A DNA stretch of 64,000 bases from an uncultured Bacteroidales bacterium (GCA_937915765.1 CALGHE010000133.1:8387-72386); one strand, 5' to 3'. Counted from the first letter of the stretch, positions 51,684-64,000 are shown. Numbers and translations: made by a program. Notes: generated by a model not told the origin, from the sequence alone.

Positions 51684-54600
51684 ATGAAAAAAATGTGTAA
51701 TATATTTCAGACTTTAACTGGTTGTCTAAAGGGGATTTCTTTTGTCAGGAGGAGCTTGTTGTCGGTTCTGCTGATGGCGTTGAGTTTTTCGGCTGTCGGT
51801 GCGGATTTCTATGGCTTGTTTCCGGACCCTCTTGTGAATGTTGCGTTTTCGCAAATGAAGGGAGACGAGGATGGTTCCAGAATTGTGGAGTGGAGTCTTG
51901 AAGATTGCCTGCCTTTAACAAAGATTGTATTGAAAAGGTCAGATTATAAACTCAGTGTTAATGATCAGAAGCATAAGGATTTAACGCATGTTATTTCTAT
52001 CCCTTGCGTAACTCCTCACAAAGTTTTCACGCTCAACAAGCCGACATCTTTCAAGGAGATGGGTTTCTTGTTCGAGAAAGATCTCAAAGGAAAGAAGGCT
52101 TCGCTTACGTTCAAGAGGAATGGTAAGCCTGACTCCCTTTTCATTGGGGTAGAGCCGGTGCTGGGGCAGGTCAAATTTGCTCCGCCAACCATTAAGCTCA
52201 GGTCGGGCAACGACATCTTTTTCTGTCGTGGAGAGCTTCACTCCTTTGTGGCATCTGTGCCAGAAGGCTTCCGCTCTGACGAGGTTAAGTACAATTGGTA
52301 TGTCGATGGAGAGAAAATGACCGGACGTCATGACCGCTGGTTTGACACTTATTCAAGGACGAACTGGGCGGATGGCGAACATTACGTGCAGTGTGAGGTC
52401 TATCTTGACGGCGAGGCGCCTTCTCCCAAAGGCACGTTCAACGTGGTGCAGCTGCCGGGCGCGAACTGTGAGTTTTCGGTGAAGGCGATTCCTTATTGGG
52501 GAGCGGAGTGTGAGGATGACACTTCGGGTGCCGACCTCAGATATAATTACAAGTCGGAATGGGGTAGTTTTGTCATAACTCCTATGGAGGAGTATGTGCA
52601 TTTCTATCTGGAGGTGATAAACAGAAAAGTCTCGTCCTTTACCGTAACAAACGACGAGGCGATTCCTAATTTCAAACTGATTAACAAGAGCGAGGCGGAC
52701 CAGGACTTTATGTTCTTCTCGCTTCCGGTGAATATGAAGGCTCAGGCAAAAGAGCCTTACACAACGCATAAGGTTTACTTCAGATTTGAAGGTGACAATA
52801 TCAATTACTCGATGACACCGTATGCGTTCCCGGAAGTTACAGCGTCGCCAGACACTGTGGAAATCTGCGAGAACTCTTTCATCATGGGCGAACCTGTGAC
52901 TTTGAATGCAGAACAGGTTGGACTGGCTAAGGACACGTACGGTTTCCAATGGTATTACTCTACTGAAATTAACGGAAAGTACGAGCCTGTAGAGAACGCG
53001 ACCTCCAAGGTGTTCACTCCGTATCGTGTGGGATATTACAAGGCGGAGGTGTCCGACGGCGTCTTTTCTGCAATGTCCGCGCCTGTTGTTGTGAAGAGAA
53101 AGACAGACCATTGTGTCAGCGTAGAGATTATTGGCGAGCGTGGCATTGATTATGTCTGCGCAAAGTCTAAACTTTATTTGCACTCTTCTATCTCTGGCAG
53201 CAACTACACTTATCAGTGGAAGGTCGGGAAGTTAGACGGCTCTGAGCTGAAAAATATAAACGGTGCCACAAATGCAGAGTATGTGGCTGCGGCAAATAAA
53301 AAGGGAGAGGCTTATTTCTTAGAGGTTAAATATGCAGGGCAGGTTGTATTGTCTAAGCCTTTCGTCGTGAGGGAGATTGCCAAACTGCCGGCTTCTAAGA
53401 ATTTGGAAATTACGGCATTGCCTTTGTCTGTGTGTCAGGGCCGTTCAGCTAATATATTTGCCAATCTGGAACTGAAAGAGAAGGAACGCCGCGAATCTAA
53501 ATCTAAGAGCCAGTTTATTTATGAACTGTATAGGAAAGGGTTTGTAGGCAATGAGCTTGTTAAGAGTGAACTTTCTAATAAGACAAGTCTGCATACGACT
53601 CAGCTGATAAACGAATCCGCCACATATTATGTGGACCTTGTCGGTTGCGACGGCAGGTTGCGCTCTAAGTCTGAGGTTACAATCAATGTTGTCAATGACG
53701 ACAGATGCTCTTCGAGCGTCTTCTATGTCAAGCCGACGGGTAATGACTATAACGACGGTTTGTCGTGGGGTACGGCTTTCCAGACTTTGAAGCATGCGAT
53801 AGAGGTCGCTTTTGAAATCAGAAACTCGGACCTTTATAAGAGCCAGCCGATAGAGATACATCTGGCCGCCGGAACTTATGCTTCGTCAAATGGATATGAC
53901 TTTCCGGACAATACCACCATCTATGGAGGTTATGACGAAGAGCCGGTTGACGGAACGCTTAGCGCTACTCTTCGCAATCCTAAAAGCCCGGCTAACATAG
54001 AAGGTAAGCTTACCACGCTAACGGCAGAAAGCACATTCTCCAGAATCGTTAAGCTGACAGACAGAAAGGATGTCAAGTTTGTGGGTATATGTTTCAACGG
54101 CGAGGCTATATCTAACGAGTCTTGGCTTAACGGACGCGCTATTTATGCTGACGGGTCGTCTGTGACTTTGGACTCCTGCTGGGTAACTAATTTCTATATG
54201 TCTGTGAATCAGGGTAACCCGATTACTGCGGTGTCTATGCTGAAGAGACGTGCGGAACGTACAGACTTCAGACCGACTCTGATTGTCCGAAATACAACCT
54301 TCTCTGCGAATAAGGGGGGCGACATAGGTTCTTGCATCGGGCTGCTGTCCGACTGCGATGTGGAAATTGCAAATTCTGTGTTTAACAACAACACAACTAA
54401 GTATAGCGGAGGGGTCGCATTGCTCTCTTTCAACGCAAGCCCGAAGGTAAATGTCTTGAACTCCACGTTCTACGACAATACGTGCCAGAATGGTATCGGA
54501 TATTACGGACGTACCGTAATTCGTATGGTGGGTGGCAATCCGGAATTGAACATATACAGTTCTACGGTCTGCGGACGTTTCTATAAGGAAGACGGTAAAC

Positions 54601-56399
54601 TTAGAATTTATAACTCTATTATTGAGTGTGCCGGACGTGCGGATGTGTATGAGAACAATTATCCTAAAGTGTCAACTTTTGTGGACGATGACCAGAAAGA
54701 CCTTGAAAAGAATGACAAGCCGTTCCTTGCTAATTTCAGAGGCGGAATAGGAGGAAAGCTTCAGAGCAAAGGCGGTTTGACTCAAGTGCTTGTTCCGGCT
54801 AACTTGCTTGAGATTGTTTCGCAGGCAGGGGCTCCTCATAAGCTTACCCCGACAGACCAGCGCGGTTTTCCTCGCAACGAGATGGCAAGCACTTACGGAG
54901 CGTATGATCTGGACCACTCGGCGTTCATCAGACTTACTTACGAGGCTTGTCCTGACTACAAGAATACAGAAGGGTCGTTCGTGGCTTCTGTTGTCGGACT
55001 GAGAAATCCAAAATATCAGTGGGTGAATAACTACTCTAACGTGGAAGGCGCCACAACTAAGGATGTTGAGAAACTCGGAATAGGAACATATTGGCTGGAG
55101 GCGACTGGCGAGGATGCAAGTGGGCGTGTGATCACTATCTCTTCTAACGAAATACGAATTTCTGATATTTGCGAGGAACCGGGCGTGTTTTTTGTCAAGA
55201 CTCCTCTGAAGGGGGGTAATGACTTGTATGCGGGTACGACTTGGAACCAGGCTTATGCAACTGTGGACAAGGCGATAGAGGCTGCCATGGAGTATAAGAA
55301 GCGCGAAGGCGAGTCTAAGCCGGTGAGCATACATGTGGCAGAGGGCGTTTATTCTCCGTCGGACGACAAGGGATTTGCTTTCCAGAAGAGCGGATTGCCG
55401 GTCTCTAATATTGTTGTCTATGGCGGATACCCGGCTAATGCGTCGAACAACTCTGTGCGGATGCCTAAGAAGGTTGGGGCTGAAGAGGGCTATTCGACAG
55501 TATTCACTGCTGCGTCGCCAAAGGGAAAGATCTTCTCTTCAAACTCAAAGACGAAGGGCTTGACTTTTGTAGGGATACAGTTTGCAGGGACAGACAGCGT
55601 GCCGTCTTCCACTTCTGCAATATCTATAGACGGAGGTGCTGTCACAATGGACTCTTGCGAGTTCCGAAACTTCAGAGCTGGCAAAAAGTCTGATGTGAAT
55701 CCGTTGATTTCTGTGACTAAGACCTCTGAGCTTACGTTGCGAAATTGTGTGGTGAGAGACAATTCTGCATGGATGTCGGCAGGTGTTTATATGAAGAACA
55801 AAGGCAATAAGTCTGTGGTGAAACTTGTCAATGTGACATTTATGAACAATGTGTCGGAAGGAGATGGCGGCGCTGCAATTTATGTTGACGGAGCTTCTGC
55901 AGACATAAGGATGTACAACTCCACGATGTACGGAAATGCGTGCGTTTCTGGAGAAAATGATGCGGCGGGAACTGTCAGACTGAAAGGCGGAGAGTCGAGC
56001 CTGAAAGTATATAACTCCACGCTTATGGGAACTTACTACCGCGAGTCCGGCTCTCTGAAGTTCTATCACTCTATGGTAGAGGCTGTGGGCGGTTATTATG
56101 TAAACGCTAACAGTTACGTGGCTTATCCTCGTCTGGAAAAGCTTGCGGACAAGATGCCGGAAGACCAGAAGAGGGCGTTCCGGAGCAATTTTGAAGACTC
56201 GCTGTCTTACGGAGGTTTCACGCCTGTCTTGAAGCCGCTGAAGAGAGATGGCTCTACGTTCTTCAGCCGTGTGAGTTCGCTTGTCTCTATAGATGGTGTG
56301 GACTTGTCTAAAGACCAGAGAGGCGAAGCGCGTCCGCCGCTGTCAATCTTGGGAGCTTGCGAGTTTGATGCCGAGAAAGAGGGAGCCGTCGGCTTTTGA
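51684..56399 (+). CDS. Large (1571 aa) exported protein: N-terminal Ig-like modules plus two tandem right-handed beta-helix modules (choice-of-anchor-Q / pectin-lyase-fold-like)
   Basis: The N-terminus has a signal-like hydrophobic segment LLSVLLMALSFSAVGA. There are two homologous modules of about 400 aa. The first starts VFYVKPTGNDYNDGLSWGTAFQTLKHAIE and ends DQRGFPR..YGAYDL. The second starts VFFVKTPLKGGNDLYAGTTWNQAYATVDKAIE and ends DQRGEARPP..LGACEFD. I recognise no T9SS C-terminal domain. Confidence 0.85.
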   Translation: MKKMCNIFQTLTGCLKGISFVRRSLLSVLLMALSFSAVGADFYGLFPDPLVNVAFSQMKGDEDGSRIVEWSLEDCLPLTKIVLKRSDYKLSVNDQKHKDLTHVISIPCVTPHKVFTLNKPTSFKEMGFLFEKDLKGKKASLTFKRNGKPDSLFIGVEPVLGQVKFAPPTIKLRSGNDIFFCRGELHSFVASVPEGFRSDEVKYNWYVDGEKMTGRHDRWFDTYSRTNWADGEHYVQCEVYLDGEAPSPKGTFNVVQLPGANCEFSVKAIPYWGAECEDDTSGADLRYNYKSEWGSFVITPMEEYVHFYLEVINRKVSSFTVTNDEAIPNFKLINKSEADQDFMFFSLPVNMKAQAKEPYTTHKVYFRFEGDNINYSMTPYAFPEVTASPDTVEICENSFIMGEPVTLNAEQVGLAKDTYGFQWYYSTEINGKYEPVENATSKVFTPYRVGYYKAEVSDGVFSAMSAPVVVKRKTDHCVSVEIIGERGIDYVCAKSKLYLHSSISGSNYTYQWKVGKLDGSELKNINGATNAEYVAAANKKGEAYFLEVKYAGQVVLSKPFVVREIAKLPASKNLEITALPLSVCQGRSANIFANLELKEKERRESKSKSQFIYELYRKGFVGNELVKSELSNKTSLHTTQLINESATYYVDLVGCDGRLRSKSEVTINVVNDDRCSSSVFYVKPTGNDYNDGLSWGTAFQTLKHAIEVAFEIRNSDLYKSQPIEIHLAAGTYASSNGYDFPDNTTIYGGYDEEPVDGTLSATLRNPKSPANIEGKLTTLTAESTFSRIVKLTDRKDVKFVGICFNGEAISNESWLNGRAIYADGSSVTLDSCWVTNFYMSVNQGNPITAVSMLKRRAERTDFRPTLIVRNTTFSANKGGDIGSCIGLLSDCDVEIANSVFNNNTTKYSGGVALLSFNASPKVNVLNSTFYDNTCQNGIGYYGRTVIRMVGGNPELNIYSSTVCGRFYKEDGKLRIYNSIIECAGRADVYENNYPKVSTFVDDDQKDLEKNDKPFLANFRGGIGGKLQSKGGLTQVLVPANLLEIVSQAGAPHKLTPTDQRGFPRNEMASTYGAYDLDHSAFIRLTYEACPDYKNTEGSFVASVVGLRNPKYQWVNNYSNVEGATTKDVEKLGIGTYWLEATGEDASGRVITISSNEIRISDICEEPGVFFVKTPLKGGNDLYAGTTWNQAYATVDKAIEAAMEYKKREGESKPVSIHVAEGVYSPSDDKGFAFQKSGLPVSNIVVYGGYPANASNNSVRMPKKVGAEEGYSTVFTAASPKGKIFSSNSKTKGLTFVGIQFAGTDSVPSSTSAISIDGGAVTMDSCEFRNFRAGKKSDVNPLISVTKTSELTLRNCVVRDNSAWMSAGVYMKNKGNKSVVKLVNVTFMNNVSEGDGGAAIYVDGASADIRMYNSTMYGNACVSGENDAAGTVRLKGGESSLKVYNSTLMGTYYRESGSLKFYHSMVEAVGGYYVNANSYVAYPRLEKLADKMPEDQKRAFRSNFEDSLSYGGFTPVLKPLKRDGSTFFSRVSSLVSIDGVDLSKDQRGEARPPLSILGACEFDAEKEGAVGF

Positions 56400-57114: not shown

Positions 57115-58707
57115 GTGAACAACGAATTAGTAATTGATGTCCAGTCTTCGGAAGTGGCTATCGCGCTGCTTGAAGAGGGTAAACTTGTGGAGATTCACAG
57201 GGAGAACCGCGTCGCGTCTTTTTCTGTCGGCGACATTTACCTTGCTAAGGTGCGGAAAATCATGCCAGGACTTAATGCTGTGTTCGTTGATGTAGGTTAC
57301 GACAAAGGTGCGTTCCTTCATTATCAGGACTTAGGTCCGCAGTTCAGCTCACTTGTCGCTTTCACAAAAAATGTTTTGCGAGACGGCAAACGCGCTCAGC
57401 CGCTGCATAAAATGCAGCTTCATAAAGACATCAGCAAAACCGGAATGATTTCGGATGTGCTTGCGCAAGGGCAGGAAATTATGGTGCAGATTGCTAAAGA
57501 GCCAATCTCCACAAAAGGCCCGAGACTAACTTCCGAGATATCGCTTGCTGGACGGTTTCTCGTTTTGATGCCTTTTGCTGAAAAAGTTTACGTGTCACAG
57601 AAGATCAAGTCTTCTGAAGAGCGTAATCGTATCAAGCAGCTGATGCGCAGCATAAAGCCTAAAAACTTCGGCGTGATTGTGCGCACTGTGGCGGAAGGCA
57701 AGAAGGTGGCGGAACTGGATGCGGAGCTGAAGACGCTGCTTAAGCGTTGGGACGAGGCGGTCGCCAAAATGGCGAGACCGCAGCAGAAGTTGCCGGCGTT
57801 GCTGCTTGAAGAGATGGGCAGAACTGTAAGCCTCTTGAGGGATATATTCAATCCGTCTTTTGAAAATATTTATGTGAACAACCGTTTCGCTTACGGCGAA
57901 ATATGTGATTACGTGGATGCTATTGCTCCGGAATGCAGCGGGCGGGTTAAAATGTATTCGGGAGACCTCCCTATATTTGACCATTTCGGAATTTCTAAGC
58001 AGGTGAAGTCGGGCTTCGGCAGGACTGTGTCCTTCAAGAACGGAGCGTACCTAATTATCGAGCATACAGAGGCGATGCACGTTATTGACGTTAACAGCGG
58101 AAACAAGTCCAAGGGTATTACAGACCAGGAGACAAATGCGGTTGACGTGAACTTGGCTGCGGCAGACGAAATCGCAAGACAGTTGAGGCTGCGCGATATG
58201 GGCGGAATCATCGTTATTGACTTCATTGATATGCAGAAGTCGGAGAACCGCCAGCGTCTGTTTGACAGAATGAAGGAGAATATGGCTCACGACAGGGCCA
58301 GACACAACATTCTCCAGCTTAGCAAGTTTGGCTTGATGCAGATTACCCGGCAGCGAGTGAGGCCGGAGATGCATGTTAGCACCGAAGAGGTGTGTCCTAC
58401 TTGCTTAGGGAAAGGCTTTTCCCAACCATCAATCTTATTTGTCGATAAACTGGAAGACAAAATAGATTATCTTGTCAATGAATTGAACGTAAAGAACTTC
58501 AAGCTGTTTGTGCACCCGTATGTAGAGGCGTACATCACGAAGGGTTTCCCTTTCTGTTCCATCAAGTGGAAATGGAGGCGGAAATACGGCAAGTTCAAGA
58601 TTGTGCCATCCCAGAGCATTGCTTATTTGCAGTATCTTGTTTTGGACAAGGACGGTCATGAAATAGACCTTCGCGAAGACTTGGAGGCAGTAAACGCAAA
58701 AAAATGA
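57115..58707 (+). CDS. rng: Ribonuclease E/G family protein (RNase G-like)
   Basis: The N-terminal region is S1-like (GDIYLAKVRKIMPGLNAVFVDVGYDKGAFLH). The catalytic region has HVIDVNSG, and GGIIVIDFIDM is also present. The start is GTG and the protein is 530 aa. Confidence 0.9.
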   Translation: MNNELVIDVQSSEVAIALLEEGKLVEIHRENRVASFSVGDIYLAKVRKIMPGLNAVFVDVGYDKGAFLHYQDLGPQFSSLVAFTKNVLRDGKRAQPLHKMQLHKDISKTGMISDVLAQGQEIMVQIAKEPISTKGPRLTSEISLAGRFLVLMPFAEKVYVSQKIKSSEERNRIKQLMRSIKPKNFGVIVRTVAEGKKVAELDAELKTLLKRWDEAVAKMARPQQKLPALLLEEMGRTVSLLRDIFNPSFENIYVNNRFAYGEICDYVDAIAPECSGRVKMYSGDLPIFDHFGISKQVKSGFGRTVSFKNGAYLIIEHTEAMHVIDVNSGNKSKGITDQETNAVDVNLAAADEIARQLRLRDMGGIIVIDFIDMQKSENRQRLFDRMKENMAHDRARHNILQLSKFGLMQITRQRVRPEMHVSTEEVCPTCLGKGFSQPSILFVDKLEDKIDYLVNELNVKNFKLFVHPYVEAYITKGFPFCSIKWKWRRKYGKFKIVPSQSIAYLQYLVLDKDGHEIDLREDLEAVNAKK

Positions 58708-58724: not shown

Positions 58725-58765
58725 AAAGCGGAGCAGCTCAAAAAGAGCGCTCCGCTTTAGTTTTT
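58725..58765 (+). terminator. Rho-independent terminator after rng
   Basis: aaagcggagc (58725-58734) pairs with gctccgcttt (58749-58758), followed by agttttt. Confidence 0.75.
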
Positions 58766-59062
58766 GGGGAGGGGAGAGATCGGAATGTATTGCTGTCCGG
58801 TAAAATGACTATCTTCGCCTATGGTTGTTTATTTTAACGTGAGTTTGACGAATTGTAATTATAAAGAAAGACAAACTATTATCAATTATACGCGCGACGT
58901 GAATGCATAGTTTCTTATGAAGGAAGCAGAGAGATTTCAGCCGCATTCATTCTGCTGTCCGGTGATATCTCCTTTTTGACGGATTGGACAGATTGACAGA
59001 ATATTTCTGCTTTGTTTTGTTAAAAAGTTTGCAGTATTCGTCTGTCAAACGAAAAAAATCTA

Positions 59063-59070
59063 TAACTTTG
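59063..59070 (+). promoter_or_regulatory. Bacteroidota -7 box candidate promoter for the AT-rich three-gene operon
   Basis: TAACTTTG lies 160 nt upstream of the ATG at 59230. The distance is long, so confidence is low. Confidence 0.3.
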
Positions 59071-59229
59071 TCTATGGTAATCTTGCGTTGTTTTTTTGTT
59101 TTCTTTTTTTTACTGTGAAATCACGAAAAAATAATGCTAATAAGTAATCAGTAGGTTAAATTTATCTAACTCATGTTAGTTTAAATAAATTAGGGTGTGT
59201 TACAATCACTGAAAGAATAATTTTCTATT

Positions 59230-60300
59230 ATGCAAATACCTCAATCCCAGATATTGACAACTCGTCACCTTAACAGGGTGTTTGATAAAACTGTGGCCAC
59301 CTATAAATTTTATTGGTTTCTTGGTATTCTAGACTTGTTTGTGAAGCAAGGAAAGACTAGGATTAATGTATGGGAAATAATGATTACGATGGTTGCTAAT
59401 GCTTGGTATCCAGTTAACTATTTCCGTCTTTCATTTGGCAAGTCCGAATCGTTATATGACGCTATTCTTGCTTTACAACGTGAGAATAATATTCCAATTA
59501 ATATTGGAATGAAGGATTTAACTATATTGCTTCAAGCATTGATCCAACGACCGGAGATACGAAAACAACTGAATTTCCTTCAAATGAATGTACCTTTCCG
59601 TTTTCTTCGTCCTTGGATAGATACTTCTGATGACCGTGAAATGGTAAAACGTTCACAAACATTCGAAAATGGATGTTTGTATAAACTCGAGAAAGAGAAT
59701 GGATCTTTGTGGGTAGAACTGAATCCTATTTGGTTGATATATTTGAAAGAGAATTATGATATATTAAGCTCATTTGCATATTGGGGGTTGACAAACTTCT
59801 TGCAAGTCCGCAACCCTAATGTTCCTAATATTCCAAGTAAACTAATAAAGAAAGAGGAACGAAATTCTTTAACATCCCAACGTAGATTTTGGAATACAGC
59901 AATAACCGGAGGAATGGAAGTAAGGTGCCTATATACTGGTAATTTGTTGATAGAATGTGAGTACGACCTTGACCATTTTATCCCTTGGAGTTTTGTCTCT
60001 CATGATTTATTGTGGAATTTAATGCCCGCAGATTCAAGTATTAATAGTTCAAAAAGTAATAAATTACCAGACTTGGATTTATATCTGCCCAAATTAGCAG
60101 AAGCCCATCAAGTAGCATTGCGCATTTATATAGGAAAGGGGAAACAAGATAAAATATTGGAAGATTATTTGTCTCTTGGCCATACCCCACAAGATATAGC
60201 TATGATGGATAGAGAACACTTGCTTGACTGCTTTTTCCAAACATTTGCTCCAATGAACCAGATTGCTCTTAATATGGGATTTGAATCATGGAAATATTGA
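59230..60300 (+). CDS. HNH (His-Me finger) endonuclease with an uncharacterised ~220-aa N-terminal domain
   Basis: The HNH core is C..EYDLDH(249)FIPWSFVSHDLLWNLMPADSSINSSKSNKLP, i.e. DH...N...N. I do not recognise the N-terminal region (..ATYKFYWFLGILDLF..). The 3' end overlaps the next ATG by 13 nt. Confidence 0.8.
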   Translation: MQIPQSQILTTRHLNRVFDKTVATYKFYWFLGILDLFVKQGKTRINVWEIMITMVANAWYPVNYFRLSFGKSESLYDAILALQRENNIPINIGMKDLTILLQALIQRPEIRKQLNFLQMNVPFRFLRPWIDTSDDREMVKRSQTFENGCLYKLEKENGSLWVELNPIWLIYLKENYDILSSFAYWGLTNFLQVRNPNVPNIPSKLIKKEERNSLTSQRRFWNTAITGGMEVRCLYTGNLLIECEYDLDHFIPWSFVSHDLLWNLMPADSSINSSKSNKLPDLDLYLPKLAEAHQVALRIYIGKGKQDKILEDYLSLGHTPQDIAMMDREHLLDCFFQTFAPMNQIALNMGFESWKY

Positions 60301-61169
60301 ATTCTATGCAAACCGAAAAAATAAACCATCCATACCTCACGGCTATCAAGCGTACAGATTTGTCTGTGCCTACTCGTTATCTACTCCAACGTGATTTGTT
60401 GAAAGGAAAAATCCTAGACTTTGGTTGCGGTTTTGGATATGATACGGATGAATTGCAAAGGAGGGGATATGATATTACTGGTTATGATTATTATTATCGC
60501 CCTGACTATCCTGATGGTAAATTTGATACAATTATCTGCAACTATGTGTTGAATGTGCTTGAACCTTACGCACAAGCAGAGGTTATGATGAATGTTACAA
60601 ATTTGCTGTCTCCAAAGGGTTCTGCTTTCTTTGCGGTTAGAAGAGATTTGAAAGAAGAGGGTTTTCGGCTTCATGCAATTCATAAGCAATATACTTATCA
60701 ATGCAATGTTAAGTTGCCTTTTCAAAGCCTTGTCCATAATAATAGCTACGAATTGTATCAATACAATCATTTTAATAAACTTCCGCGGAAAGAAGGCGAA
60801 AAATGTCCATTCTGTAAATTATCTCGAAGAGTGGAAGTCATTTGTGAAACGGCAACTTGTGTTGCTTTCTATGATGGTTATCCAGTTTCGCCTGGTCATG
60901 CATTGATTATTCCAAAGCGTCATGTGGCTAATTATTTTGACCTAACTAATCATGAACGTGAAGCAATGAATATAATGCTTCAATATGTTAAACGAAAGAT
61001 AGATGAGCGTTTCCATCCTGATGGTTATAATATTGGAATTAATGTGAATGAAGCTGCAGGCCAATCAGTATTTCATGTTCATATGCATTTGATACCACGT
61101 TATAAAGGAGATGTGGATAATCCTAAAGGTGGTGTGCGGGGTGTGATTCCAAGTAAACAAAAATATTAG
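60288..61169 (+). CDS. Fusion protein: class I SAM-dependent methyltransferase (N-terminal) :: HIT-family histidine-triad nucleotide hydrolase/transferase (C-terminal)
   Basis: MTase motif I is ILDFG(46)CGFGYD, with an acidic residue after beta-2 (ITGYD) and IICNYVLNVLEP. The HIT domain runs CPFCK..AFYDGYPVSPGHALIIPKRH..NIGINVNEAAGQSVFH(263)VH(265)MH(267)LIPR. An alternative start at 60306 is possible. Confidence 0.8.
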   Translation: MEILNSMQTEKINHPYLTAIKRTDLSVPTRYLLQRDLLKGKILDFGCGFGYDTDELQRRGYDITGYDYYYRPDYPDGKFDTIICNYVLNVLEPYAQAEVMMNVTNLLSPKGSAFFAVRRDLKEEGFRLHAIHKQYTYQCNVKLPFQSLVHNNSYELYQYNHFNKLPRKEGEKCPFCKLSRRVEVICETATCVAFYDGYPVSPGHALIIPKRHVANYFDLTNHEREAMNIMLQYVKRKIDERFHPDGYNIGINVNEAAGQSVFHVHMHLIPRYKGDVDNPKGGVRGVIPSKQKY

Positions 61170-61170
61170 C

Positions 61171-62865
61171 ATGAAACATAGAAATTCACAACCATATCTC
61201 ACTTATGCATTAAATAAAGAAGGTGATTTGGTACACATTGACAGCGTTCCAAATGGTAATGAATGTGAATGTTTTTGTCCACATTGTAAAAGTGAACTTT
61301 GTGCAAAAAACGGTGGTTCGGGTCTAAAAATGGTTCATCATTTTGCTCACATAAATGGTGCTGATTGTTTCGGTGCAGTTGAATCAGCTTTACATAAGAT
61401 GGCAAAGGATGTCATAAAAGAAACTTTAAGTTTACAGTTACCAGACAGATTAGATGGAAGCCGGGGAGAGTTATTAAAATTTGATAATATAGAAGTTGAG
61501 TATTACGACAAGGAGACTAATTTGCGCCCAGATTGTATTGGTTACTATGGAGATAAAAAGATTTGGATTGAATTTAAACGTACTCACGCTGTTGATACAA
61601 GAAAGAAAGGCAAAATTATTTCTGCCAAAATAGATTGCGTAGAGCTTGACCTAAATGTTTGCAAACTTGATCCAGATGTCGTTCGTAATTTCATAATAAA
61701 CGAAACTCAAAATCGTATCTGGATTAGAGATTGTGAATTAAAAACAAGAATGTCAGGTCGTATGCTTGGATATGGCACCTATCTTGACAGATATTCTGAT
61801 TATTATGAATATAGACACATAGAACGTGTATTCGCAAAGGATGAGAATGATATACTAGTCAACTTATTAGACGACAAAGTCGACATGAATATTCATAATT
61901 ATTATTGTTTGGCATGTGGCAAAGAACTTACTATAAATATTAATGAATTGGGAACTTATATTTTTGTACATGTTGATGAGAATGTTCATTGTAACGATGA
62001 TTTATATTTGCATGAAGCAGCAAAAGATATTCTCCATCATAAGTTCATTGCTTCAGATGATTTTAAAATTCTTGTTCCTCAATATCAAAACTGTGCAGAG
62101 AAGACATGTTGTGCTTTATTTCAATCAGAATTATGTACGACAGATAAAAGTATTACATACGATTTGAAACAACATGGCTATACAGAATGCTTGAAAGATT
62201 ACAAATTTCAAGATTTTAAATTTAAATGTGATTTAGTTATTAAAACTGCTAATAGCAATAAAAATGCCATTCTAATAAGTATTAATGCTGGTGCTTGCCA
62301 TGTTGATATAGATACTAAAGAATATAGAATCATAGATATTGAAGTGTCAAATAGTGATCAACTTTTATCTCTATTAAATGAACCGATTGGACACTTTCAT
62401 TCATCTTTTATAAATTTTAAACGTGAAAATGAAAAGACTGCTTTACGTTCGGAAATGGATAGAAAGATATTAAAGTTCTCTTTATTTTCTAGTGGTAAGT
62501 ACCGTATAGACACAGTCTCATGCGATAAGTTAAATGAGCATAAGTACAGTACTGTTTTAGAATACATTTTTATTGAAGGAGTAGATAATAAATACGATGC
62601 AAAATTGTACTCACTTTGGCGGTGTTATGAACAAAAACGAAATGTCTGCTTCTGCGAAATATGTTGGTTCATTGTTAAAACTAATGGTTTTTATGGTGTA
62701 TCGGAAACCATATGTAAACGATATAAAACAAAAGGAACCCCACATTACCCATTAGAGGTTATGCCTGTTAATTGTCCCTATTTTAAAATTAACAAAGAAA
62801 TAGAGAGTGTGTTAAAGTTAAATTATGGAAATATGGTTGTAAATGAAAATAAAATTCATGAATAA
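61171..62865 (+). CDS. Protein with two tandem CoiA-like modules (zinc-ribbon + PD-(D/E)XK nuclease fold) and a C-terminal Cys-rich region
   Basis: Module 1 has CECFCPHCKSEL..HHFAH..C..ESALHKMAK, then RPD(121)C..IWIE(134)FK(136)RTH and CVELDL. Module 2 has YYCLACGKEL..FVHVDENVHC..LHEAAK, then KCDLVI..AILISIN (ExK lost) and RIIDIEV. The C-terminus has CFCEIC..C..C. The gene starts 1 nt after the previous stop. Confidence 0.75.
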   Translation: MKHRNSQPYLTYALNKEGDLVHIDSVPNGNECECFCPHCKSELCAKNGGSGLKMVHHFAHINGADCFGAVESALHKMAKDVIKETLSLQLPDRLDGSRGELLKFDNIEVEYYDKETNLRPDCIGYYGDKKIWIEFKRTHAVDTRKKGKIISAKIDCVELDLNVCKLDPDVVRNFIINETQNRIWIRDCELKTRMSGRMLGYGTYLDRYSDYYEYRHIERVFAKDENDILVNLLDDKVDMNIHNYYCLACGKELTININELGTYIFVHVDENVHCNDDLYLHEAAKDILHHKFIASDDFKILVPQYQNCAEKTCCALFQSELCTTDKSITYDLKQHGYTECLKDYKFQDFKFKCDLVIKTANSNKNAILISINAGACHVDIDTKEYRIIDIEVSNSDQLLSLLNEPIGHFHSSFINFKRENEKTALRSEMDRKILKFSLFSSGKYRIDTVSCDKLNEHKYSTVLEYIFIEGVDNKYDAKLYSLWRCYEQKRNVCFCEICWFIVKTNGFYGVSETICKRYKTKGTPHYPLEVMPVNCPYFKINKEIESVLKLNYGNMVVNENKIHE

Positions 62866-63167
62866 CTTAATTGATCTTTCATTCCATAAAAATAATTAGT
62901 GTATGTAAGATAAACGAGTCAAGAAACAAAAGCATGATTTAATTCAAGTTAAATATATTATATAAACAATTTAATATATTTGTATTAAAACATCAAAAAA
63001 AGACGTTAAGCAGTTGAATTAATAATAAGTACGTTGAAACTTCGAAGTCTTAGGAGTTTTAGGTGGGAATGCTTATGCCTTTATTAGGGGTTAAGTGGAG
63101 AAGCCGTGCAATCTGAAAATTTGACATTCTAAAGATTGAGCTTTTTGATTCTGATGCAATAATTAAA

Positions 63168-63195
63168 CCTCAGCCATAATGAGTTGTGGCTGAGG
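63168..63195 (-). terminator. Hairpin downstream of the MFS gene (could act on either strand)
   Basis: cctcagcca (63168-63176) pairs with tggctgagg (63187-63195), a perfect 9-bp stem with a 10-nt loop. T-rich sequence lies on both sides. Confidence 0.5.
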
Positions 63196-63219
63196 TGGTT
63201 ATGTGTTTTGTTTTATCTC

Positions 63220-64000
63220 TCACTTCCCCTTCTTCCAAAGCACGCAGGAGAGGGTGAAGAGGATTGCGGAGAGGACGAAGATGTAGATGAACGAGACGTG
63301 CATGTTGTATTTCTCCGCTATCATGCCTATCACGAACGGTCCGAACAGAAAGCCGGTGCCGCTGATTGTGTTCACCATCGCTATGCCGGTGCCCGGACTT
63401 ACGTCTTTGCGGTTGCCTGCCAGACTGTAGATTATCGGCACAAGACACGATAGCCCAAGCCCTGAAATGAACAGACCTGTGACGGCAAAGTAGATGTCGG
63501 TCTTCATAATCATCACGCCCAGTCCCAACATGGCAAGAAAACTGCATCCTAAAAGGATTGTCGGCTCGCTGAACCGCTTGCGTATGGAGTCGCCGAAGAA
63601 TCGCCCGAAGGCAATGAACGACGCGTATATCAGAAGCCCAACCGGAGCGATGTTCTCTTCCAGCGAAACAATCTCTTTCATGTAAACCGTGCTCCAGTCA
63701 GACACGCTGCCCTCTATGATTCGTCCGCACAAAGCGATGAACGCGATAAGCAGCAAAACGCCTTTGGGCAGCAGCAGCTTGAATCCTTGCGGAACGTTTT
63801 TCTTGGACGGTGTTTCTTTGAGAAAGTAAGTGCGCACGATGTAGAACTGAATCAGCGAGATGGCAGACACCATTATGAAGTGAGCCGCCACGTTTACGTT
63901 GAGGGTCAGGCAGGCAATGCTTAGGATTGCGCCAGCGCCTACGCCTACGTAAAACAGCGCGTGGAACAGTCCGATGATGGGACGCTTGTATGCCTTTTCC
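63220..64000 (-). CDS. MFS-type transporter, N-terminal part lies beyond the window edge
   Basis: The minus-strand frame stays open from the stop at 63220-63222 to nt 64000. I hand-translated upstream of the GTG at 63891 and got ..KAYKRPIIGLFHALFYVGVGAGAILSIACLTLNVN.. The protein is a run of hydrophobic helices typical of MFS carriers. Confidence 0.75.
   Translation of the reverse strand, partial: EKAYKRPIIGLFHALFYVGVGAGAILSIACLTLNVNVAAHFIMVSAISLIQFYIVRTYFLKETPSKKNVPQGFKLLLPKGVLLLIAFIALCGRIIEGSVSDWSTVYMKEIVSLEENIAPVGLLIYASFIAFGRFFGDSIRKRFSEPTILLGCSFLAMLGLGVMIMKTDIYFAVTGLFISGLGLSCLVPIIYSLAGNRKDVSPGTGIAMVNTISGTGFLFGPFVIGMIAEKYNMHVSFIYIFVLSAILFTLSCVLWKKGK

Follow-up and report, generated by a model that had tools for sequence, protein, structure and literature searches.

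An HNH Endonuclease and a Methyltransferase-HIT Fusion Protein Encoded as a Gene Pair in an Uncultured Bacteroidales Bacterium: Most Likely Part of a Restriction-Type Defence Module

A Coupled Gene Pair in a Low-GC Islet

A 64,000-nt stretch of DNA from an uncultured Bacteroidales bacterium (GCA_937915765.1, CALGHE010000133.1:8387-72386; hereafter the window, with positions counted from its first nucleotide) encodes a protein of 293 amino acids (aa), in which a class I S-adenosylmethionine (SAM) methyltransferase is followed by a histidine triad (HIT) domain. This protein, MT-HIT, had been singled out for its domain fusion in an earlier, sequence-only reading of the window; three points were not part of that reading, namely the HNH endonuclease encoded as its operon partner, the low-GC islet in which both genes lie, and the defence-island and Ssp (phosphorothioation) context of its relatives. 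The stop of the HNH gene overlaps the start of the MT-HIT gene by 13 nt, and MT-HIT is translationally coupled to this upstream gene as the second gene of a two-gene module. The islet consists of three co-directional genes, coding for HNH, MT-HIT and a CoiA_N-like protein, and is enclosed by genes for RNase G and a major facilitator superfamily (MFS) transporter (Table 1). The module in the window is an orphan copy in a horizontally acquired islet. Together with HNH, MT-HIT most likely makes up part of a hitherto undescribed defence module of the restriction type, which is found in defence islands.

TABLE 1. Positions of the HNH/MT-HIT gene pair, its domains and motifs, and the surrounding features in the window.
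Feature	Position	Strand	Details and basis
HNH endonuclease, 356 aa	59230..60300	+	Pfam HNH_4 at residues 233-280, E 2.2e-10
MT-HIT fusion gene, 293 aa	60288..61169	+	Alternative start 60306; open reading frame calling, Pfam, NCBIfam, AlphaFold2
Methyltransferase half (aa 1-166)	60288..60785	+	Methyltransf_23 and TIGR04096 N-terminal match
Motif I, D44-F-G-C-G-F-G50	60417-60437	+	Class I SAM glycine-rich motif
HIT half (aa 171-293)	60798..61166	+	Pfam HIT, PDB HIT sequence matches, Foldseek
Histidine triad, H263-V-H265-M-H267	61074-61088	+	H265 is the predicted nucleophile
HIT C-terminal tail, D275..G281-G-V-R-G-V-I-P288..Y293	61110-61166	+	Subfamily-specific
Low-GC islet, 4.5 kb	58750..63250		GC 0.27-0.37 vs. 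~0.48 in the flanks
CoiA_N-like Cys-rich protein, 564 aa	61171..62865	+	Pfam CoiA_N, E 5.5e-8
RNase G gene	57115-58707		5' flank of the islet
MFS transporter gene	63220-63891	-	3' flank of the islet
Terminator-like hairpin, 13-bp stem	63167..63196	+	Consensus scan only; 3' of the CoiA_N-like gene

Domain Architecture of MT-HIT

The MT-HIT reading frame starts with ATG, contains no internal stop and is preceded by an in-frame stop just 5' of it; M7 (at 60306) is a candidate second start, which is used by many homologues. The intact frame bears out the earlier description of one continuous 293-aa protein with two halves, and so do the two Pfam domains, each of which scores above its curated threshold: Methyltransf_23 at residues 30-162 (E 1e-13, 51.8 bits, cut-off 27) and HIT at residues 183-273 (E 6.1e-27, 94.6 bits, cut-off 21.5). 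Every motif quoted in that description was found as well, i.e., ILDFGCGFGYD, ITGYD (with D67) and IICNYVLNVLEP in the methyltransferase half, and CPFCK, GHALIIPKRH and GQSVFHVHMHLIPR in the HIT half. In an alignment of 47 sequences, motif I and D67 of the class I SAM fold are invariant, and so is the extended histidine triad H263-V-H265-M-H267-L-I (61074-61094), while the CxxC-type motif of the HIT half reads C173-P-F-C176. The methyltransferase half carries a family-specific N-terminal motif (N13..T18-A-I-K-R..S26-x-P28), and further conserved positions in the same alignment are D67, Y86-VLNVL-91, R119-D120, Y137-Q-C139, E155, Y157 and H161. Both domains are intact and under selection.

AlphaFold2 run on the single sequence gave an unusable model (pLDDT 33), so the model described here is the one built from the 47-sequence alignment (pLDDT 82.7, pTM 0.75). 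It consists of a Rossmann-type half, in which strands and helices alternate over residues 42-160 at a pLDDT of 83-97, and a HIT half, joined by a short linker of low confidence (residues 166-172). In Foldseek searches of the PDB, the HIT half is matched best by the diadenosine tetraphosphate (Ap4A) phosphorylase Rv2613c, Bacillus subtilis Hit and Fhit, and also by Hint (probability 1.0 for Fhit, Hint and Rv2613c), and 46 HIT chains match MT-HIT in a PDB sequence search. The best 50 PDB matches of the two-domain model are all HIT proteins, with no structural neighbour of the methyltransferase half among them. A structure search of BFVD returned generic AdoMet methyltransferases only; likewise, searching PDB sequences with a profile of the methyltransferase half gave generic class I matches, mostly over the SAM-binding motifs. 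Low-score resemblance exists to the small-molecule methyltransferases TehB, UbiG, ArsM and CpaM.

As had been noted before, the motifs of canonical DNA methyltransferases are missing: a regular-expression search of MT-HIT found no (D/N/S)PP(Y/F/W), i.e., no motif IV of N6-adenine or N4-cytosine methyltransferases, and neither PCQ nor ENV of the C5-cytosine enzymes. Moreover, the methyltransferase half is only ~150 aa long, and no target-recognition domain was found in it. MT-HIT can be assigned to the class I methyltransferase and HIT superfamilies, though to none of the DNA methyltransferase classes considered, and it is a genuine two-domain protein that combines a minimal (~150 aa) SAM methyltransferase with a HIT domain whose catalytic residues are predicted to be intact. 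The HIT half represents a distinct HIT subfamily, recognised by a C-terminal GG[VI]RGVIP tail, which is conserved also in stand-alone HITs and in HITs fused to other domains.

The fusion itself had been called unusual, an assessment that does not hold: it has a standard product name at NCBI, a search with the single sequence yielded 3,768 fusion clusters at 90% identity, and a profile search yielded at least 4,645 such clusters among 8,000 candidates scored. Nor is it an artefact of assembly, since the same one-chain architecture recurs across several phyla, in thousands of assemblies that are independent of each other. In genome and metagenome scans, its hosts comprise Bacteroidales, Cytophagales, Flavobacteriales, Chitinophagales/Saprospiraceae, Ignavibacteriales, one deltaproteobacterium and many Cyanobacteria; the full-length fusion was not found in plasmid or phage collections. 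JGI annotates homologues as Ap4A hydrolases. Many homologues from gut Bacteroidales are 365-390 aa long due to a C-terminal extension of ~75-95 aa, and the protein of the window belongs to a short form that is likewise abundant. The extension is variable (P0091, P0112, P0001, P0105), with the pattern W..D..L....(S/T)...LA..F.R....I..R..KL; by eye it resembles a Myb- or helix-turn-helix-type DNA-binding motif, and no significant PDB match was obtained for it. Stand-alone homologues of the methyltransferase half also exist: proteins of 150-190 aa (L187-L193) show 38-51% identity, keep the N-terminal LTAxxR..S.P motif and are encoded on IMG/VR viral contigs, among them jumbo-phage-sized ones of 225-349 kb. 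A literature search on the fusion, on TIGR04096 and on HIT proteins in defence retrieved no functional study of the MT-HIT family, and PADLOC v2 covers it with nothing more specific than a generic HIT match to ThsC. The MT-HIT family is therefore large and named in databases, without a functional description found in the literature.

The HNH Partner and the Coupling of the Two Genes

The HNH protein of the window has a C-terminal, Cas9-type HNH domain with the catalytic residues D248-H249, N263 and N272. HNH_4 is matched by 36/36 members of its family, and the family profile matches the HNH domains of Cas9 in the PDB. The N-terminal ~200 aa contain a T24-Y25-K26 motif, and T-Y-K is invariant across three subfamilies; apart from this motif, the region has neither a Pfam match nor a PDB sequence match, and these two kinds of search gave no sulfur-binding domain (SBD) or SRA domain either. 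Homology of the N-terminal domain to SspB/DUF4007 was considered and rejected (hhalign probability 0.07%).

Across 90 genome loci, HNH, directly upstream and on the same strand, is the sole recurrent neighbour of MT-HIT outside a conserved cyanobacterial synteny. An overlap of 13, 4 or 1 nt between the two genes is seen in the majority of 49 genome loci, whose hosts are Bacteroidales, Cytophagales, Flavobacteriales, Chitinophagales, Ignavibacteriales and one deltaproteobacterium. The gene on the 3' side of MT-HIT varies among relatives: it may code for a patatin, a MORC-like ATPase (HATPase_c_3), a helicase or SspD, or be missing altogether.

Several other arrangements were observed around the pair. 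In four loci (L143, L144, L145, L151), a conserved ORF of ~82 aa (MIMKDNFGNTKPVQIE..NEWWFNGRIIVKQ..) shares 4 nt with the MT-HIT gene at its stop; this ORF is a feature of the lineage with an HNH of the second subfamily and may be a third component of the module. A protein of 1,601 aa, combining DEAD/Helicase_C with a UvrD-type helicase, is encoded 1-3 nt after MT-HIT in L101-L103 and L200. Directly upstream of HNH/MT-HIT, two loci have a gene pair for TcmP-like and DUF5131 (Gp37/Gp68) proteins (L021, 773-2613, with a gap of 11 nt to HNH; L025, 5043-6895, with -28 nt), and two others have a fusion of SIR2 with a prokaryotic Argonaute (pAgo) of 1,050-1,080 aa (L020, 3778-6930; L023, 3688-6930; PADLOC pAgo, 1,442 bits).

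The Same HIT Subfamily in Other Contexts

A search of a representative library showed that residues ~171-293 of MT-HIT, including the tail, are ~50% identical to stand-alone HITs of ~125-135 aa and to the N-terminal domain of proteins of ~1,000 aa. Stand-alone HITs with the tail (49-58% identity) adjoin an HNH endonuclease on plasmids of Polaromonas, Aromatoleum, Persicobacter and Hymenobacter (n = 4), where the HNH partners are 338-351 aa long and either gene order occurs; in Proteobacteria, HNH and HIT pairs recur with the opposite order. The Aromatoleum HNH aligns over its full length with that of the window, including an ATYKF motif. Since a HIT without methyltransferase adjoins the same HNH family, the methyltransferase is an optional N-terminal addition: HNH and HIT form the core of the module, to which the methyltransferase has been added by fusion to HIT in one large lineage. 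The four plasmids also speak against a classical restriction-modification pair, as the same HNH family is there paired with HITs that lack a methyltransferase.

The larger proteins (P0197, P0249, P0262-P0264, P0267) are ~1,000-1,400 aa long and have the architecture HIT-PLD-ResIII/helicase, followed by either DUF3427 or an S24 LexA-like peptidase, where PLD denotes a phospholipase D-type nuclease. By their domain order, they can be classified as SauUSI-like type IV restriction enzymes with an added N-terminal HIT, a fusion of which we found no description in the literature. A link of these proteins to dnd systems was considered; their TIGR04095 match covers only ~85 helicase residues at 47-67 bits (cut-off 600) and was therefore rejected as generic similarity among superfamily 2 (SF2) helicases. 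A further member of the HIT subfamily is found in the Streptomyces phage phiSASD1 (L098), where gp3, a PP-loop protein annotated as 3'-phosphoadenosine-5'-phosphosulfate (PAPS) reductase, is followed by gp4, a HIT of 110 aa with 44% identity and a GGVRGVIP tail, in the module for nucleotide metabolism and replication.

The Catalytic Triad and the Nuclease Are Found Together

To relate the state of the triad to the presence of the nuclease, genome and metagenome loci were pooled, collapsed at 97% identity and required to have room for an upstream gene (n = 112). An intact HxHxH triad is accompanied by a T-Y-K HNH in 69/112 loci, and a substituted triad is never accompanied by HNH (0/112). The middle histidine, which corresponds to the nucleophiles His96 of Fhit and His112 of Hint, is replaced by S, A or N in 40/112 loci without HNH, mostly cyanobacterial. 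An intact triad without T-Y-K HNH was found in 3/112 loci, one of which has an HNH_2 nuclease upstream (L038) and another an AAA_11/12 helicase-DUF2726 gene downstream (L001). Fisher's test of this association gives 3e-27, a value that is not corrected for phylogeny and in which the substituted group is largely one phylum.

The cyanobacterial triad reads H-A/T-S/A/N-I-H, and the methyltransferase motifs and the remaining HIT domain are still conserved. The cyanobacterial HIT thus looks like a putative pseudo-enzyme, retained as a binding domain. Taken at face value, this pattern says that loci with the nuclease would require HIT catalysis, and that the methyltransferase would have a value of its own. 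Loci with a substituted nucleophile (L040-L090, L147-L173; cyanobacterial and related) include that of Nostoc, in which MT-HIT has a conserved position between Uma2-family genes near serA/prmA, and that of Microcoleus, in which it adjoins an Hsp70-like gene.

Links to Phosphorothioation Systems

The sequence-only reading had likened the N-terminal stretch of MT-HIT to TIGR04096, a family of putative methyltransferases associated with DNA phosphorothioation (dnd). At the level of the domain, the resemblance is real: residues 17-94 match positions 6-85 of 478 in the TIGR04096 model (E 2.7e-17), the same partial match occurs in 13/13 diverse members of the MT-HIT family, and dnd-associated TIGR04096 is the best family match of the methyltransferase half by ten orders of magnitude (next-best family, ~1e-8). 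Membership in the family does not follow, as the score of 62.7 bits is below the cut-off of 150 and the 64-kb window contains no dnd or TIGR04095 neighbour. MT-HIT shares with TIGR04096 the N-terminal motif and the SAM core, whereas the other ~390 residues of TIGR04096 are replaced by HIT. The methyltransferase half is thus predicted to share its clade with the N-terminal part of TIGR04096. In the TIGRFAMs description, the TIGR04095 enzyme is reported as a neighbour of TIGR04096, and MT-HIT is found near a TIGR04095-like PLD-helicase in three related loci.

Genes of the Ssp type recur as well. In the nomenclature of these systems, SspB corresponds to DUF4007, SspC to DUF6079 and SspD to PAPS reductase (PMC12914056). 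The upstream gene in related loci, small or full-length, codes for DUF4007, i.e., SspB; in one locus the pair is flanked by a full-length SspC (L042, 1,418 bits, PADLOC profile), and in another SspD overlaps MT-HIT by 4 nt (L030, 302 bits, PADLOC profile). The most complete order was found in L020, with an SspB-like gene (a DUF4007 fragment), SIR2-pAgo, HNH, MT-HIT, SspD and a TIGR04095-like PLD-helicase, the last of which matches the TIGR04095 model, named “DNA phosphorothioation system restriction enzyme”, end to end with 409 bits. The theme is repeated in independent metagenome and NCBI loci (L100, L143-L145, L151, L200), and ssp genes, full or partial, are present in L020, L030, L033, L042, L143-L145 and L200. 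One array consists of SspB, a short SspC, HNH, MT-HIT and the 1,601-aa helicase (L200), and the combination of SspB, SspC, HNH and MT-HIT without SspD is found in L145 and L200 (SspC of 503-516 aa) and in L042 (full-length SspC). Overall, Ssp or TIGR04095-like sequences lie within 8-10 kb in 12/69 HNH-bearing clusters vs. 0/40 HNH-less ones. The module resides in defence islands, and its embedding in Ssp clusters is recurrent in a minority of loci. These gene neighbourhoods point to an evolutionary tie of the module to Ssp-type clusters and TIGR04095-like PLD-helicase restriction enzymes. Two readings fit these arrays: ssp genes that decay around an HNH/MT-HIT pair that survives, or a stable variant composed of SspB, short SspC, HNH and MT-HIT.

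A Possible Role in Nucleotide Processing

HIT enzymes attack nucleoside-5'-phosphoryl-X bonds via a covalent His-NMP intermediate, and PP-loop enzymes such as SspD and DndC make AMP adducts. The HIT protein HINT1 slowly converts (d)NMPS to (d)NMP and H2S (kcat ~0.02 s-1; PMC8775712), so that a HIT acting on thiophosphoryl nucleotides is chemically precedented. Because of this chemistry of HIT enzymes, HINT1 and PP-loop proteins, the HIT partner could resolve adenylylated or thiophosphorylated DNA ends or nucleotides. In the mechanism proposed here, the HNH protein would be the effector that recognises and cuts target DNA, and H265 would attack a nucleoside-5'-phosphoryl or -phosphorothioyl species that is made or met during HNH cutting; candidate substrates are a 5'-adenylylated or 5'-thiophosphorylated DNA end, and a nucleotide of the type (d)NMP-X or (d)NMPS. 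The methyltransferase might then methylate that phosphoryl or thiophosphoryl group itself, or else the sulfide that is released, and not a base.

In our view, MT-HIT and the HNH nuclease are probably partners in function, within a module of the defence or restriction type. The best explanation overall is that it serves as the nucleotide-processing subunit of an HNH restriction-type module, to which we would give an even chance. Chemistry on a nucleotide or nucleotidyl intermediate in place of base methylation had already been suggested in the sequence-only reading. The suggestion fits a HIT that is the constant partner of the nuclease and a methyltransferase that is dispensable; it also fits the small size of the latter, its missing target-recognition domain and the retention of the HIT histidine where the nuclease is kept. 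That phosphorothioate DNA is the ancestral or actual substrate world of the module is conceivable, if somewhat short of an even chance, and the specific combination of S-methylation and desulfuration as the chemistry of MT-HIT is unlikely. The reading that goes furthest would make HNH and (MT-)HIT a phosphorothioate-linked module and MT-HIT a phosphorothioate-processing enzyme, in which the S-methylated sulfur is the leaving group displaced by the HIT histidine; phosphorothioate marks would be erased or edited, or adenylylated or thiophosphorylated intermediates of the SspD reaction would be resolved. We regard this as distinctly improbable.

Several observations weigh against a nucleotide-processing or phosphorothioate-linked role. 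The 64-kb window contains no ssp or dnd gene or relic; sspB, sspC, sspD and TIGR04095-like sequences are all absent from it, and a search for Ssp relics upstream of the window HNH found none. Among relatives, Ssp or TIGR04095-like genes accompany only 17% of the HNH-bearing loci, SspC is in many cases short (224-516 of ~1,035 aa) and SspD is usually missing; given the low share of loci and the short SspC copies, the Ssp link could be one of co-residence in islands. The N-terminal domain of HNH has no detectable similarity to known sulfur-binding domains or SspB, and the weak TehB/ArsM-type similarity of the methyltransferase half rests mainly on the SAM-binding motifs. The co-variation of triad and HNH is dominated by one clade, the Cyanobacteria, and is not phylogeny-corrected, and the cyanobacterial copies keep the methyltransferase without any nuclease. 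Finally, no paper on the MT-HIT family was found that would bear on its role.

The presence of a methyltransferase next to a nuclease invites another interpretation, in which MT-HIT is the modification arm of a system akin to restriction-modification and protects host DNA from HNH by a mark, either on a base or in the backbone. In a variant of this idea, MT-HIT would replace the sulfur-inserting enzyme in arrays of SspB and a short SspC-like ATPase without SspD, similar to PglX vs. BrxP in types 1 and 4 of bacteriophage exclusion (BREX; PMC12914056). Such arrays do recur (L145, L200, L042), TIGR04096 is named a dnd-associated putative methyltransferase, and the stand-alone homologues on viral contigs would be in line with a protective function. 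Phages often carry orphan protective methyltransferases. However, HNH and HIT pairs without any methyltransferase exist, so that methylation cannot be a general means of self-protection; MT-HIT also lacks the DPPY/NPPY and PCQ/ENV motifs and a target-recognition domain, Cyanobacteria keep the methyltransferase without a nuclease, and it would not be explained why the HIT nucleophile tracks the nuclease. A modification arm is thus unlikely. The cyanobacterial orthologues, which lie in conserved synteny outside islands and without a nuclease, might instead suggest an independent metabolic or house-cleaning enzyme that methylates a small molecule, hydrolyses a nucleotide derivative and hitch-hikes in islands next to a functionally unrelated nuclease, in agreement with the label Ap4A hydrolase used by JGI and with the low-score similarity to TehB, UbiG, ArsM and CpaM. 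Such independence is hard to reconcile with the start/stop overlap with HNH that recurs across phyla, with the intact nucleophile in 69 loci with HNH vs. 3 without, with the position of the window gene in a low-GC islet, and with the recurrence of the HNH and HIT pairing, in opposite gene order, in Proteobacteria; it therefore seems unlikely.

The kinship with Ap4A phosphorylase/ATP adenylyltransferase, the top structural and NCBIfam neighbours of the HIT half, raises the question of signalling. In this scenario, HIT would act as a nucleotidyl transferase or phosphorylase, in the manner of Ap4A phosphorylase, and make or destroy a signal of the dinucleoside-polyphosphate type, optionally methylated, which the T-Y-K domain of HNH senses (cf. 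Cap5 of CBASS). The architecture of HNH, an uncharacterised N-terminal domain joined to a nuclease, would suit an effector of this kind, and the window protein matches the PADLOC profile of ThsC (E 4.8e-12), a HIT protein present alongside some Thoeris systems, with a hypothesised action on their signal (PMC8565338). On the other hand, the module has no infection sensor, a HIT of 121 aa alone is unlikely to be both sensor and synthase, ligand binding by the HNH N-terminal domain has no support, and the PLD-helicase-DUF3427 fusions and the PP-loop adjacency point to the processing of DNA or nucleotides. We consider a signalling pair very improbable, and nucleotide processing alongside HNH remains the explanation that we prefer.

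Comparison With Known Systems

Compared with B. subtilis Hit (1Y23), human Fhit, Mycobacterium tuberculosis Rv2613c and HINT1, MT-HIT has the same fold, CxxC motif and HxHxHxx triad, at 25-38% identity over ~100 residues. It differs from HITs of the Hint/Fhit type by the additional conserved tail D-x5-GG[VI]RGVIP-x4-Y, the methyltransferase fusion and the operon with HNH. Aprataxin, a HIT enzyme that clears 5'-AMP from the intermediates of abortive DNA ligation, shows that a HIT can act on nucleotidylated DNA ends, and the adjacency of the HIT subfamily of MT-HIT to PP-loop ATP pyrophosphatases (SspD, and gp3 of phage phiSASD1) relates to this chemistry. In contrast to aprataxin, MT-HIT has neither a zinc finger nor an FHA domain, and its sequence affinity is with Hint/Fhit.

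In described phosphorothioation systems, nuclease genes lie beside or inside the modification clusters (PMC12914056, PMC10853773). The module resembles their restriction components (SspE, SspFGH, ScoMcrA-type SBD-SRA-HNH proteins, and mcrA in the BREX type 4 operon of B. salyersiae) in having a nuclease beside or inside phosphorothioation clusters, and in the frequency of orphan copies without modification genes. Unlike SspE, the HNH module has no DUF262 or DUF1524, and unlike the ScoMcrA type it has no SBD or SRA domain detectable in Pfam and PDB sequence searches; its obligatory HIT partner occurs in none of the described phosphorothioate restriction systems. A complete Ssp system (SspABCD with SspE or SspFGH) is not present in the window.

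SauUSI-like type IV enzymes (PLD nuclease-SF2 helicase-DUF3427) carry the same HIT subfamily, ~50% identical and tail included, as an N-terminal fusion. Because the same subfamily is fused to this architecture, HIT seems to have been attached repeatedly to DNA-restriction machinery. In the window, by contrast, the nuclease is a separately encoded HNH, and the module lacks both a helicase and a DUF3427 reader. With ThsC of type II Thoeris systems (PADLOC), MT-HIT shares membership in the HIT family and an anti-phage context. Yet the islet holds only the HNH, MT-HIT and CoiA-like genes, and thus neither ThsA nor ThsB, and the match to MT-HIT covers only the generic HIT core. New here is a restriction-type, possibly phosphorothioate-associated module with a HIT or HIT-methyltransferase subunit, which may be unprecedented.

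HIT domains recur in defence contexts (ThsC, the HIT-PLD-helicase fusions and the HNH/MT-HIT module), none with an assigned role. The HNH/MT-HIT pair is a compact, widespread two-gene system that is common in gut Bacteroidales and in which this role could be tested, and the naturally nucleophile-dead variants of Cyanobacteria provide built-in controls. Thus, the fusion is ordinary in frequency, and it is the operon logic, the catalytic co-variation and the Ssp link that together pose a testable question about HIT domains in prokaryotic immunity. If the Ssp link is functional, phosphorothioate-based immunity would gain a new component for restriction or processing, and the module could also be a source of an enzyme for thiophosphoryl or adenylylated DNA ends; if it is not, the module would still be a new candidate restriction-type system that is absent from PADLOC v2. 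Should MT-HIT indeed process phosphorothioates, removal or remodelling of a natural modification of the DNA backbone would for the first time be known for an enzyme, and a HIT domain would for the first time have a defined catalytic role in prokaryotic immunity.

Other Features of the Islet and the Window

The CoiA_N-like gene begins 1 nt past the MT-HIT stop. Its product has a zinc-ribbon-like N-terminus and, judged by eye, a probable nuclease core of the PD-(D/E)xK type (RPD...IEFK); neither PADLOC nor the PDB yielded a match for it. Since relatives have varying genes at this position, it is probably a separate, independent gene for a defence nuclease. A consensus scan found no terminator-like site on the + strand within 59230-62865. 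The islet flanks were scanned for direct repeats at the boundaries, and none that was convincing was found. Further upstream, ahead of genes for an HU-like protein and RNase G, the window encodes a secreted-looking protein of 1,571 aa (51684-56399, + strand), which is unrelated to MT-HIT and has two right-handed beta-helix regions and repeated Ig-like segments.

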